Assembly: GCA_945898725.1 (NCBI GenBank) | Contig: CAMDIK010000007.1 | Location: forward strand, 3,859 to 67,858 | Source: Rickettsia typhi | GTDB lineage: Bacteria; Pseudomonadota; Alphaproteobacteria; Rickettsiales; Deianiraeaceae | Direction of reading: 5' to 3' | DNA length: 64,000 nt | Notes under the pieces: model-generated | What the model was told of the DNA's origin: nothing | Database searches by the model: none | The model's input: only the letters and a program-made list of their open reading frames with translations | Part shown: piece by piece, positions 48,530 through 51,323 of the stretch | How positions within the stretch are numbered: the stretch's first letter is position 1 | Layout: every line of letters begins with the position of its first letter | Made by a program: the position numbers and the translations under genes

Positions 48530-49834
48530 TTAGCAGATTTTCAAGATTTCTTGCAGAATTTCGTGAATCATCAGATTTCCCGTTGCACCAATATGGGTTT
48601 TAGATTTTATATTCTCAACCGGGTTGATATTTTCCAGTTGTGCCAGGTTGTTTTTAACCATATGGTACGCATCGCGAAAGGACATTCCCTGGTGTATTAC
48701 CAGATTATTTGCCACGTCTGTTGCGAAAATTGTTGAATCTTTTGCGAAGGTTTGGTGTAAAATTTCCTCATTTGGGCTTAAGTTTTCCATTGTAATTTCC
48801 ATTATTTTCAAGCTTGAATCGGCTATTTCCAGAGATTCCATAATGGCGCTTTTGCTGAATTTTAAGTCTTTATTGTAGCCTGAAATTAGATTGTGGCATA
48901 AAACCGTCATCTGGGATAAATTTGCAAAAATTTTGGCAGATTTTCCGCGCATAACCTCCATGGCGTCTAAATTTCGCTTTTGTGGCATGATGCTTGAGCC
49001 CGTTGTTATGGCGTTTGATGCTGTGAAAAATCGAAATTCCTGCGAGCAAAATATTATAATATCGTTTGCCATTTTTTCCAAAGTTAGCATCACTTGAGAC
49101 AAGCATGAGATGGCGAAAATTTCAAATTTACCTCGAGAATTCTGGCAAAATAGCGAATTTATCATAGTTTTTTCAAAGCCTATGTCTTTGGTTGTGAAAT
49201 TTCTATCCAGCGGAAACGAGGTTCCAAAACCCGCGGCAGACCCAAGTGGATTTTGGTTTATTAGACGCGTTCCTGCGTGAATACAGTGCAAATCATTCAG
49301 TAGGGACTCTAAAAAAGCTCCAGCCCACTGCCCCACGCTAGAAGGCATCGCATGCTGCATGTGGGTAAACCCCGGCATGGGAATAAACTCATATTTTATC
49401 GCAAATTCCGCAATTTTTTTCGCCAATTCCTTGATATTTTCACATATTTTCTGCATTTCCGCGATGGTAAATAGTCTCATTGCGGTTAGAACCTGGTCGT
49501 TTCGCGAGCGCCCCGTGTGTATTTTTTTCCCTAGATCGCCAAGTTTTTCGGTGAGATAATTTTCAATTGCCGAGTGTATATCTTCGAACCCTGCAAGGTT
49601 AAAATCGCCACCAAGTGCGTCTATTTCGCCTAAAGTTTTGATAATTTTTTCAAGTTCATCAGGGGTAAAAATGCCAATATTTGCAAGCATTTTAGCGTGT
49701 GATTTTGACGCAAGAATATCGTATTTTAGCAGTTTTCTATCCTCACAAAGCTGCGGGGAAAATATATATTCGCTAATTTTCGGGTGCAATGCAGAGCCGC
49801 CTTCATTCCATAATTTCGCCTTTAATTCACTCAT
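48530..49834 (-). CDS. argH: Argininosuccinate lyase
   Basis: Fumarate-lyase family with TGRSRNDQV and GSSIMPQKRN motifs. Overlaps the upstream ORF by 8 nt. Confidence 0.9.
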   Translation of the reverse strand: MSELKAKLWNEGGSALHPKISEYIFSPQLCEDRKLLKYDILASKSHAKMLANIGIFTPDELEKIIKTLGEIDALGGDFNLAGFEDIHSAIENYLTEKLGDLGKKIHTGRSRNDQVLTAMRLFTIAEMQKICENIKELAKKIAEFAIKYEFIPMPGFTHMQHAMPSSVGQWAGAFLESLLNDLHCIHAGTRLINQNPLGSAAGFGTSFPLDRNFTTKDIGFEKTMINSLFCQNSRGKFEIFAISCLSQVMLTLEKMANDIIIFCSQEFRFFTASNAITTGSSIMPQKRNLDAMEVMRGKSAKIFANLSQMTVLCHNLISGYNKDLKFSKSAIMESLEIADSSLKIMEITMENLSPNEEILHQTFAKDSTIFATDVANNLVIHQGMSFRDAYHMVKNNLAQLENINPVENIKSKTHIGATGNLMIHEILQEILKIC

Positions 49835-51323
49835 TTACCTCTGCTAAAAAACAACAAAATTCACCTTTTTGAATAGCATTTTTCGGGAAAATTACGAACG
49901 AATCTCTGCTGGCTGAAATATTTTCACCCCCGTCATTTGCAAAATTTTCGCCTGATTTTACCAATGTAAAATTCGCTATATTTTCTTGTGCGAAGCGGAA
50001 ATTGCCTGATTTTGCTACGATTTTATCGTATATTCTGAATTTTTTCACCCCCGCTGCGGTTGTTGTGAATTCTTTTCTAAAATGCGCCTGAATTAATTCC
50101 ATTGACTCTTTTGAAAAATATTTCGGATTTTTAAAGGTACTTCCAACTGTTTTTCTGCCAATAGGTTGAGTTTTGGCACGCTTTTCTGAAATTTCTTTCA
50201 TTTTTTTCAAAATTTTCTCACATTCACCACTCTGCCCTTCTAAAACCACTTTAGTTATTATTATATCGCTTGGTAAATTCGCGCTTCTATATGTAAAATT
50301 TACATCTTTTTTATGCAAAATTCCAATATTTCCCGCAAAATCAACATACTCGCAGGAGGTAAAAATATCGGATATTTCCCGCCCATAGCAACCCGCGTTC
50401 ATGTGCACATTCCCCCCGATTGTGCCTGGAATTCCTATTAAAAACTCCATTCCTGATATGCCATTTTCAGCTGCAAATTGTGCCACGGAAAAATCTAAAG
50501 CCCCTGCCCCAACTTCTATTTTTTTCTCTGAAATTTTTCGCATTCCGGAAAAGCCTTTTTTCAGGGAAATTACAGCCCCGCGCACGCCTTTATCGCGCAC
50601 AATTGTGTTTGATCTTGCCCCAATAACGGTTAAAGAAAGGGAATTTTCCGCCTCTAAAATGGTGCATTTTTCCTGTATTATTCGCATAATTCCATCAAGT
50701 GCAACTTTGCTACAGGAATTTTCAATTGACCCCGCTTCGATTGTTACGCCAATTCCTCCATTTCTATCAATAAATGAGTCAAAACTGGTGAATAAATCTT
50801 TGTCTTCTTGGGAAAAGTTCCCCCCGGGAGAAATTATTGTATTTATTTCAAAATTTTCAGCAATTTCAAGATGAGGCAGGGAATTTTTGCAGAAAATAAA
50901 TGGCTTCGAAGCCCTGATCGTTGAGTGAACGTCCAGCAAAATATCACAATTTGAAAAGAACGGAAGTATTGCAACAAGCCTTGCACGCTCGGTATTTGTT
51001 CGATTTCCCACCAGGTTTTCAAGACCTTCAAGACCAAGCAGGCGATTCATGTCTTCCACAACGAATCGCACATTTTGCCTTATTGCCTCTATATTTGCAC
51101 AGATAAATGTCACTTTTCCTGAAGATATTCCGCATTTATCCAGGTGTGGTATTGCGCTTTGCATAATATCAAGCCCGACTGTTTCATTTCCGTGTACGCA
51201 CAGGGTTATTGCTATGTGCGCGCCGGGTTTTTCGCCTTTTATTTCAAAAATACCCTTCCCCAGCTTGGAAAATCTTTGAAAATTCAGCGATATTTTTTCT
51301 AACAAATTGTCAATTTCCTGCAT
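49827..51323 (-). CDS. Chimeric protein: AstE/AspA-family zinc deacylase core (aa ~1-215) fused to a MurB-like (UDP-N-acetylenolpyruvoylglucosamine reductase-like) domain (aa ~215-498)
   Basis: The N-terminal half has CVHGNETVG, ANIEAIRQNVRFVVEDMNRL, DILLDVHST and GVTIEAG, the zinc and catalytic residues of the succinylglutamate desuccinylase/aspartoacylase family. The C-terminal half has VIGARSNTIVRDKGVRGAVISL, GMEFLIGIPGTIGGNVHMNAGCYG, FTYRSANLP and TQPIGRKTVGSTFKNP, all MurB motifs. The region after that is poorly conserved. Confidence 0.7.
   Translation of the reverse strand: MQEIDNLLEKISLNFQRFSKLGKGIFEIKGEKPGAHIAITLCVHGNETVGLDIMQSAIPHLDKCGISSGKVTFICANIEAIRQNVRFVVEDMNRLLGLEGLENLVGNRTNTERARLVAILPFFSNCDILLDVHSTIRASKPFIFCKNSLPHLEIAENFEINTIISPGGNFSQEDKDLFTSFDSFIDRNGGIGVTIEAGSIENSCSKVALDGIMRIIQEKCTILEAENSLSLTVIGARSNTIVRDKGVRGAVISLKKGFSGMRKISEKKIEVGAGALDFSVAQFAAENGISGMEFLIGIPGTIGGNVHMNAGCYGREISDIFTSCEYVDFAGNIGILHKKDVNFTYRSANLPSDIIITKVVLEGQSGECEKILKKMKEISEKRAKTQPIGRKTVGSTFKNPKYFSKESMELIQAHFRKEFTTTAAGVKKFRIYDKIVAKSGNFRFAQENIANFTLVKSGENFANDGGENISASRDSFVIFPKNAIQKGEFCCFLAEVNE

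Follow-up and report, generated by a model that had tools for sequence, protein, structure and literature searches.

A MurB fragment nested within a predicted AstE/AspA-type deacylase of a putatively succinyl-type arginine operon

For arginine biosynthesis through succinylated intermediates, the desuccinylase has so far been represented only by a genetically inferred candidate of the M20 family in Bacteroides (PMC7311316), namely BT3549, a candidate N-succinylcitrulline desuccinylase (GapMind, PMC7311316). We found no paper linking proteins of the succinylglutamate desuccinylase family with arginine biosynthesis and a carbamoyltransferase. Here we describe a gene in a 64,000-nt stretch of DNA (hereafter the window; GenBank assembly GCA_945898725.1, contig CAMDIK010000007.1, positions 3,859 to 67,858 of the forward strand), listed as Rickettsia typhi with a GTDB lineage in the Deianiraeaceae. 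The gene occupies the argE position of an arginine operon, and its 498-aa product is predicted to be a complete AstE/AspA-type zinc deacylase, carrying between its two domains a piece of MurB. A comparative paper on Rickettsiales does not mention this fusion gene. The best explanation of the whole is, with a probability of about 0.72, a succinyl-type terminal deacylase with a nested, selected and probably nucleotide-binding MurB fragment.

Four Pfam families were matched along the protein: AstE_AspA_cat (PF24827) at aa 34-201 (65.1 bits vs a cut-off of 25), FAD_binding_4 (PF01565) at aa 225-332 (58 bits, profile positions 21-134 of 139), MurB_C (PF02873) at aa 371-427 (31 bits, profile positions 2-55 of 99 only) and AstE_AspA_hybrid (PF04952) at aa 429-492 (20.9 bits, E 3.7e-4, slightly below the cut-off of 25). 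The first-pass annotation had described the open reading frame (ORF) as a deacylase continuing into a MurB-like domain that ran to the C-terminus. The catalytic and MurB families that this implied were indeed recovered, but the sub-threshold PF04952 match, at the extreme C-terminus, was at odds with a plain fusion. The ~200-aa MurB piece (aa ~233-428) is instead nested in the linker between the AstE domains and not appended C-terminally, because both known long proteins, once stripped of aa ~229-428, aligned end to end with the un-inserted proteins P0035 (292 aa) and P0125 (288 aa), sharing 60 invariant columns. In the same alignment the last ~70 residues (KKFRIYDKIVAKSGNFRFAQENIANF...SFVIFPKNAIQKGEFCCFLAEVNE) corresponded to the AstE family's own C-terminal barrel domain, with 45% identity to P0035 and 52% to the ortholog on contig L008. 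The stretch AQENIANF, read earlier as a decayed S-x-x-H-x-NF motif of MurB, belongs to this barrel and aligned with '..VDFDNF' and 'DDKIKNF' of un-inserted orthologs.

Structure prediction gave the same arrangement. The AlphaFold2 (AF2) model, built from an 88-sequence alignment, had a mean predicted local distance difference test (pLDDT) score of 87.5 and a predicted template modelling (TM) score (pTM) of 0.67, with confident blocks at aa 1-220, 259-389 and 427-498 and low confidence at aa 226-258, 390-403 and 420-423. In Foldseek searches the solved AstE structures 2BCO and 1YW6 matched both AstE domains across the insert (target TM 0.66-0.71), 1yw4 further matched the catalytic domain, and the solved MurBs 1HSK, 2GQT and 9DTK matched the middle block (aa ~259-389) with root-mean-square deviations of 1.6-3.6 A. 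The AstE core would be expected to assemble in the usual way, the MurB piece forming a module of its own that is looped out from it. A degenerate but C-terminally complete MurB-like domain reaching the protein end is refuted by these alignments and structure matches and was judged extremely unlikely: Pfam does place the MurB domains downstream of the AstE catalytic domain, and PF04952 stays under its gathering score, but the last 70 aa match un-inserted AstE-like orthologs residue for residue and form the AstE barrel in the predicted structure (aa ~429-498 by PF04952, by alignment with P0035 and P0125 and by Foldseek), MurB_C is covered only in its first half (positions 2-55 of 99), and MurB-conserved columns past residue ~260 have no counterpart.

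The single uninterrupted ORF that had been noted at this position was borne out by an independent ortholog. P0002, a 500-aa protein 56-58% identical to the window protein over 99% of its length, is encoded on a 34-kb contig (L001; 30% G+C) of an unrelated Logan assembly, SRR26784072, and has an identical three-part architecture, identical junction positions and no stops. It lies in the same gene string as in the window (argG-argF'-345aa-argC-argB-X-argH, where X is the fusion gene). In the window the start of the fusion gene lies 1 nt past the stop codon of argB, and the gene shares 8 nt with argH. An assembly chimera or sequencing frameshift, wrongly joining a deacylase gene to a murB pseudogene, is a negligible possibility: exactly this protein is found on one contig only, but two assemblies so divergent would not share the same junctions and an open frame, the AstE C-terminal domain picks up in frame past the insert, and dN/dS across the insert is well under 1. 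That this is one polypeptide with a nested topology is near certain. In an exhaustive search of 1.84 billion representative proteins, the domain combination was confined to a single cluster, with two sequences known, and no other protein matched both halves; a scan of GTDB representative genomes returned 132 pattern matches, none related. A profile search with alignment A2 collected ~65 proteins of 218-344 aa above 195 bits in the AstE-like subfamily, and MurB domains within this subfamily were carried only by P0001 and P0002. The combination of AstE and MurB domains thus appears to be undescribed, as had been suspected.

The MurB piece was delimited with the NCBIfam equivalog NF010480, whose profile positions 54-251 (of 303) aligned with aa 225-424; the score, 207 bits, did not reach the cut-off of 259, and TIGR00179 likewise stayed under its own (118.9 vs 144.5). 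It corresponds by sequence alignment to residues ~70-248 of S. aureus MurB (1HSK), and to residues ~56-258 of the ~330 of a Deianiraea-type (type II) MurB. On the domain map of P. aeruginosa MurB (PMC3689657), used here to assign its parts, the insert retains domain II entire, preceded by the GXG strand-loop-strand from domain I and followed by lobe 1 of domain III, which includes the Ser proton-donor loop. The absence of the start of MurB, put earlier at ~50 residues, was confirmed (~55 residues); the last ~75 are missing as well. Lost are beta1-alpha1-beta2 of domain I (with the W.GGG.A motif), lobe 2 of the substrate/NADPH channel and, together with the C-terminal strand, the catalytic Glu; conserved columns of MurB residues 20-38 and 261-327 have no counterpart.

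Within the retained range, by contrast with the decay proposed in the first-pass annotation, the insert shows no degeneration. We aligned it with 117 free MurBs and called a column conserved when at least 85% of them agreed; 56 such columns fall within the insert, of which the window protein keeps 53 and P0002 keeps 54. The retained residues and motifs include G235, S238, N239, R243, D244, G..SN, RD.G, GIPGTIGGN, MNAGCYG, YR and TQP..(K)T.GSTFKNP. The Arg of GARSN, taken before as a lost glycine, marks the clade as a whole, whose free MurBs look functional, and is common to all five closest of them, as is a KNPKYF.K.S..L extension after the Ser loop, and because of this extension the donor is traced to a Deianiraea-type MurB. 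Free MurBs of this clade, among them that of Candidatus Deianiraea vastatrix (P0006), are the nearest relatives of the insert and 52-62% identical to it over ~190 aa.

Judged from its sequence, the insert cannot be a self-sufficient MurB. Of the catalytic triad, Arg346 (YR) and Ser395 (GSTFKNP) are kept and the C-terminal Glu (column E322 in P0006) is gone; the MurB S-x-K-H-x-NF motif is absent. Because beta1-alpha1-beta2, lobe 2 and the strand with the catalytic Glu are missing, the insert should be unable to catalyse the MurB reaction, and we regard MurB activity of the insert as very improbable. The protein is most unlikely to serve as the cell's only MurB, or as one part of a split enzyme whose N- and C-terminal MurB pieces are encoded by other genes. 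Such a role would fit the near-complete set of MurB-conserved residues over the stretch that is kept, the Arg and Ser of the catalytic site among them, the broken ispDF-murB adjacency on L001 with no free murB on that contig, and the presence in the window of a peptidoglycan-related NagZ-like GH3 gene, which makes it probable that the cell builds a wall. However, a search of the window and L001 for the MurB N- and C-terminal remnants gave only noise (best E 0.007-0.03), half of the substrate/NADPH channel is missing together with the catalytic Glu and S-x-K-H-x-NF, and the window and L001 are a small part of both genomes, so that a normal murB elsewhere is the simpler expectation. The earlier view that the MurB-derived part is not the organism's MurB therefore stands, given its truncation and its scores under both equivalog cut-offs.

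The insert is the best-conserved segment of the fusion protein between the window and P0002. In pairwise alignment its identity was 67%, compared with 51% for the N-terminal and 53% for the C-terminal AstE part, and by insert part it was 65% in the domain I remnant, 69.5% in domain II and 75% in the second remnant that AF2 did not place. Between the two inserts, 53 of the 56 conserved columns were identical vs 79 of the 133 other columns (Fisher p = 2.5e-7); because substitutions avoid the MurB-conserved columns, MurB site-specific constraints have persisted since the two organisms diverged. Nonsynonymous (dN) and synonymous (dS) divergences (Nei-Gojobori) were 0.24 and 1.6 for the insert (dN/dS about 0.15), 0.40 and 2.3 for AstE N, and 0.37 and 1.5 for AstE C, values that are rough only since dS is saturated (1.5-2.3). 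In a neighbour-joining tree the branch lengths of the inserts were ordinary, like those of free MurBs. Compared with the other genes of the operon (Table 1), selection on the insert is as strong as on the core arginine enzymes, and the insert has very probably been kept by selection.

What selection has kept it for was weighed between two readings. The insert would most likely be a folded accessory module that still binds flavin adenine dinucleotide (FAD) or a related nucleotide and has a structural or regulatory role; all elements of the flavin pocket are present and conserved except the N-terminal half-sheet and the C-terminal strand. Taken by itself, binding of FAD or a related nucleotide is possible but slightly doubtful. 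The main rival view, although unlikely, is that the insert is a tolerated passenger in a permissive linker, without ligand or function, conserved only since its misfolding would inactivate a needed deacylase. The insertion lies exactly within the interdomain linker with junctions of variable length (the N-side linker differs in length and sequence between the two orthologs), domain II is the only insert part confidently folded by AF2, many of the conserved MurB columns are structural Gly or Pro positions, and the un-inserted enzyme evidently works in sister lineages. Against such a passenger, the domains of the host enzyme itself change faster than the insert does, the remnants that AF2 did not place are 65% and 75% identical, with the non-structural motifs RD.G, TQP.GRKTVGSTFKNP and YR unchanged, and in a small, AT-rich genome one would expect a sequence that is only a spacer to become shorter.

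The host enzyme carries the AstE/AspA motifs H44-G-N-E47, D91-M-N-R94, D131-V-H-S134 and T196-I-E-A-G200, all of which had been listed in the first reading of the sequence. The predicted zinc ligands are H44, E47 and H133, the predicted catalytic residue is E198 and the predicted substrate residues are R86, N93, R94 and R188; these roles were assigned by analogy with what we take to be the equivalent aspartoacylase positions (21/24/116/178/63/70/71/168). All eight residues were invariant across inserted and un-inserted orthologs in alignment A2. The catalytic profile, the metal and substrate residues and the C-terminal barrel domain together place the protein in the AstE/AspA superfamily. It is not an AstE equivalog, as scores for TIGR03242 and NF003706 were far below their cut-offs (60.6 vs 305.65 and 79 vs 170), and no M20 match (Peptidase_M20) was present among the Pfam and NCBIfam matches of the fusion protein. 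The astCADBE genes of arginine succinyltransferase (AST) catabolism were not present around the fusion gene, whose neighbours are carAB, argG, argF', argC, argB and argH.

The substrate is suggested by the transcarbamylase of the operon. The argF' product matched NF003384 (acyl-ornithine type) with 239 bits, well above any ornithine transcarbamylase (OTCase) model. At the position of Glu92 of the X. campestris N-acetylornithine transcarbamylase (AOTCase), it has Pro in the window and on L001, and Ser in the Peribacteria loci. Its best PDB match was 3L04, whose sequence in the printed alignment departs from that of 3KZC only by Pro for Glu at this position; 3L04 is presumably the E92P mutant. 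Work summarised in PMC7311316 indicates that S, P, A or V at this specificity site confers a preference for succinyl substrates. The neighbouring transcarbamylase is thus of the predicted N-succinylornithine transcarbamylase (SOTCase) type, and a succinyl-type transcarbamylase needs a desuccinylase, in line with what had been supposed before of this route.

We consider it likely that the host enzyme is the terminal deacylase of the arginine operon, and we tentatively favour N-succinylcitrulline as its specific substrate. This assignment is the most likely one because un-inserted orthologs occur at the same operon position, because one relative is fused to ArgH, and because of the Pro in the transcarbamylase. 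The reaction would be N-succinyl-L-citrulline + H2O -> L-citrulline + succinate, feeding ArgG and ArgH of the same operon. The most economical reading of the genomic context is that the AstE-like subfamily would serve these operons as N-succinylcitrulline desuccinylase, standing in for ArgE as a non-orthologous replacement. Action on another acyl compound, either N-acetylcitrulline, N-acetyl- or N-succinyl-ornithine, or N-succinylglutamate in catabolism as in a true AstE, is unlikely. The family does handle several N-acyl amino acids (AstE, aspartoacylase, DoeB/EutE and CphZ were all among the Foldseek matches), and the closest NCBIfam transcarbamylase model is of the N-acetylornithine type. 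On the other hand, the residue at the specificity position, Pro or Ser, points to succinyl, acyl-ornithine transcarbamylases put deacylation after carbamoylation, the TIGR03242 score is far too low for a true AstE, and the context is biosynthetic (argG, argB, argC, argH, carAB), without AST catabolic genes.

Table 1 Features of the fusion gene and of the arginine operon in the window, with amino acid identity to contig L001.
Feature	Position	Strand	Basis or remark	Identity to L001 (tblastn)
Whole ORF: predicted AstE/AspA-family deacylase with nested MurB fragment	49827..51323	-	498 aa, single open frame	
AstE/AspA catalytic domain, aa 1-222	50658..51323	-	PF24827, Foldseek, AF2 pLDDT > 90	
N-side junction linker, aa ~223-232 (LEAENSLS...)	50628..50657	-	low AF2 confidence	
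MurB domain I remnant, aa 233-258: GXG/P-loop strand (GARSN) and RD(K/G)G strand	50550..50627	-	alignment, PMC3689657 map	
MurB domain II, aa 259-389: FAD-binding core (GIPGTIGGN..MNAGCYG, YR)	50157..50549	-	PF01565, pLDDT > 90, Foldseek	
MurB domain III lobe 1 remnant, aa 390-428: TVGSTFKNP Ser proton-donor loop, clade-specific KYFSKESxELI helix, variable C-side linker	50040..50156	-	PF02873	
AstE/AspA C-terminal barrel-sandwich hybrid domain, aa 429-498 (KKFRIYDKI...SFVIFPK...FCCFLAEVNE)	49830..50039	-	PF04952, alignment, pLDDT > 90, Foldseek	
AstE N-terminal part				50%
MurB insert				71%
AstE C-terminal part				54%
argH (argininosuccinate lyase)	48530..49834	-	Pfam	69%
argB (N-acyl-glutamate kinase)	51325..52167	-	Pfam	58%
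argC	52180..53172	-	Pfam	65%
X344, conserved 344-aa P-loop protein of unknown family	53174..54208	-	in every operon of this type	72%
argF', predicted acyl-ornithine transcarbamylase, SOTCase type	54186..55232	-	Pro at succinyl/acetyl specificity position	67%
argG	55235..56440	-	Pfam	71%
carB	56447-59530	-	head of same gene string	
carA	59484-60554	-	head of same gene string	

Un-inserted proteins were found in several related loci. P0125 lies in an argC-argB-X-argH string (X in these loci being the un-inserted gene) on L008, a different contig of sample SRR26784072. L006, L010 and L011 (P0035, P0130) have the order argG-argF'-~345aa-argC-argD-argB-X-argH, shared by L012 and L014, which are Candidatus Peribacteria or 'Patescibacteria group' metagenome-assembled genomes (MAGs); L013 is a partial contig with the argB-X-argH segment only, and L009 carries P0175 and argH as a gene pair within a 1.66-Mb contig. 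No curated family model for these un-inserted proteins was present in the libraries searched. The fusion to ArgH is P0246, a 735-aa protein of the representative library in which an AstE-like deacylase (aa 28-288) is joined to an argininosuccinate lyase domain (aa 319-601), a Rosetta-stone link of the deacylase subfamily to arginine synthesis. Outside the Deianiraea-like group, the closest whole-operon relatives were those of Candidatus Peribacteria and 'Patescibacteria group' MAGs, with the same gene order and 31-48% protein identity, which hints at horizontal operon transfer between candidate-phyla-radiation and Rickettsiales-like bacteria. AstE-like loci of Balneolaceae, Planctomycetota and others, 20-30% identical, were set aside as paralogs; arg genes were not found in the flanks of those loci where tblastn gave a match.

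Between argF' and argC the operons encode X344 (L001 7103-8140, L006 3908-4936, L010 3856-4899, L012 3841-4869), which in the window is 72% identical to the L001 copy and about 42% to the Peribacteria copies. It gave no Pfam or NCBIfam family above threshold; it has a P-loop, GTGMNSGKT, and weak similarity to CbiA, DUF1611 and dethiobiotin synthetase (BioD) in PDB profile and Pfam searches. A single-sequence structure model was not usable (pLDDT 31.5). Because operons of this type are without argA and argJ, X344 is a candidate for the missing first step; that it forms N-succinylglutamate is speculation, and a literature search combining DUF1611, N-acetyltransferase and glutamate found nothing. 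The argD gene (Aminotran_3) lies between argC and argB in Peribacteria-type operons (L006 4964-7990) and is not found in the corresponding interval of the window (51325-53172), L001 (8144-9994) or L008 (359-2239), with or without the MurB insert; a scan of the larger ORFs of the window detected no aminotransferase. The carA and carB ORFs that head the string share 47 nt (59484-59530) when each is read from its first possible start codon; in reality carB probably starts further downstream. Past a DsbD-like gene, ~1.8 kb upstream of the whole carA-carB-arg string, lies a LysE-type amino-acid exporter gene (62385-63011, + strand), which may bear on arginine export.

A broader proposal would have the MurB module co-opted as a flavin- or nucleotide-binding domain that equips the desuccinylase to do something new, for example to oligomerise obligatorily or to sense redox state or cell-wall precursors, and the whole operon as an undescribed succinyl-arginine pathway, with the AstE-type enzyme replacing ArgE and X344 replacing the acyl-CoA-dependent first step. 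We regard this as rather unlikely; if true, the module would be one of the rare cases in which a piece from the interior of an essential enzyme has been domesticated as a nested domain.

The identities of argC, argB, argH and the AstE core place the window and L001 closest to each other, with un-inserted L008 as outgroup and Peribacteria farther away, a pattern that fits a single insertion in the common ancestor of the window and L001 organisms, after the split from the L008 lineage. In the neighbour-joining tree the two inserts were sisters and branched beside the free Deianiraea-type MurBs. A free murB directly follows ispDF in L002, L004 and L005 (the adjacency spans 3009-5211 in L002 and 3802-5990 in L004), and L002 has the order FolP-FolBK-IscA-NifU | nuoK-ispDF-murB. 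In the window, FolP-FolBK-IscA lies at 41697-43801, ~6 kb from the fusion gene; on L001, ispDF lies 2.7 kb beyond argH with no murB after it. On both contigs with the fusion, genes that flank murB in relatives thus adjoin the arg operon at its 3' end, which is suggestive of a fragment derived from the resident murB by local rearrangement. At the place of murB, L001 (12791-15395) has a 379-aa ORF without family match, convergent to ispDF. Candidates for the fusion genome's own murB were rejected: P0003 comes from the same sample as P0002, but the ispDF on its contig is 62% identical to the L001 copy and so belongs to another organism, and P0004, P0005 and P0007 are from other samples.

Several points weigh against the picture of a succinyl-type deacylase with a selected, nucleotide-binding MurB module. 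Of the elements that help to form the FAD pocket in real MurBs, the C-terminal strand is missing and the domain I sheet is only half present, and pLDDT is < 50 for the remnants at aa 226-258 and 390-403 that would complete the pocket; flavin binding is uncertain because of these missing strands and of the low model confidence in the remnants. The conservation of the insert could reflect only the need to fold cleanly inside an essential enzyme. The substrate assignment draws on operon logic and on one specificity residue in a neighbouring enzyme, the AstE equivalog models reject the host enzyme, and without argD the pathway seen in the window is incomplete. As to origin, the clade of the inserts branches as sister to the sampled free Deianiraea-type MurBs as a whole and not to one of them, and so designates no specific donor; the view of the fusion organism's murB content is limited to the 64-kb window.

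The remainder of the window (G+C 37.5%) contains a complete 16S rRNA gene (30761-32269, + strand, 1480 bits), next to EF-G on the other strand. No 23S or tRNA gene was found near it, and no tRNA gene in the whole 64 kb. Unlinked rRNA genes are typical of Rickettsiales. The window also encodes the outer-membrane proteins BamA and LpxA besides the NagZ-like GH3 protein, and L001 has VirB8- and CagX-type secretion genes. The gene content and the nearest MurB relatives fit a Rickettsiales-like, Deianiraeaceae-related bacterium. Between the IscA-FolBK-FolP block and alaS, a 541-aa protein without family match (43827-45452, - strand) has tandem 13-residue repeats of the EKIEKLEKERLEK type, encoded at 44255-44452 with a 39-nt DNA period and 86-90% matches, and is possibly a surface or effector-like protein of the coiled-coil kind. 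Several large ORFs were without a Pfam match at E <= 1e-4, namely those at 36489-40262 (-, 1257 aa), 35085-36290 (-, 401 aa), 12995-14608 (+, 537 aa), 1949-2947 (+, 332 aa) and 23741-24916 (-, 391 aa).

The locus represents a new domain architecture within a known enzyme family, in a poorly described pathway variant, and is known from two uncultured organisms only. The AstE-type enzyme at the desuccinylase slot, which occurs also in a sister Deianiraea-like lineage and in Peribacteria (candidate phyla radiation), offers a testable candidate for gap-filling tools. The fusion is also an unusually clean natural domain insertion, with a traceable donor clade, an origin dated to one branch and un-inserted sisters for comparison, and it is a warning for the automated annotation of reduced genomes, the ORF being neither 'the organism's MurB' nor a pseudogene.

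Among known systems, the AstE/aspartoacylase family (PF24827 and PF04952; 2BCO, 1YW6, 1YW4, 2GU2) shares with the fusion protein a two-domain fold, with a zinc carboxypeptidase-like catalytic domain and a C-terminal barrel-sandwich, an H-x-x-E...H metal site, a catalytic Glu and Arg/Asn substrate residues, as well as the proposed chemistry, hydrolysis of an N-succinyl or N-acyl amino acid. Unlike AstE, to which it is not orthologous, the fusion protein belongs to a biosynthetic operon, would act on N-succinylcitrulline and holds a ~200-aa foreign domain in its linker. Type II MurBs (that of Deianiraea vastatrix, P0006; 1HSK, 9DTK) have in common with the insert GARSN, the KNPKYFxKxS extension, the GXG strand, domain II and the Ser-loop motifs, whereas the insert is embedded in another enzyme and is without ~55 N-terminal and ~75 C-terminal residues. 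The un-inserted proteins P0125, P0035, P0130 and P0175 (286-292 aa), which come from Candidatus Peribacteria and 'Patescibacteria group' MAGs as well as from a Deianiraea-like relative, are orthologs of the fusion protein along its entire AstE core (36-46% identity), have no MurB insert and occupy the same slot adjoining argH, mostly within the same operon; an SOTCase-type transcarbamylase and X344 also occur in L006 and L010, whereas L008 and L009 do not show them. ArgE-type (M20) deacylases, BT3549 of Bacteroides included, would perform the same step, removal of the N-acyl group after carbamoylation, with a fold and family unrelated to the M14-like AstE/AspA fold of the fusion protein, which would thus be a non-orthologous replacement.

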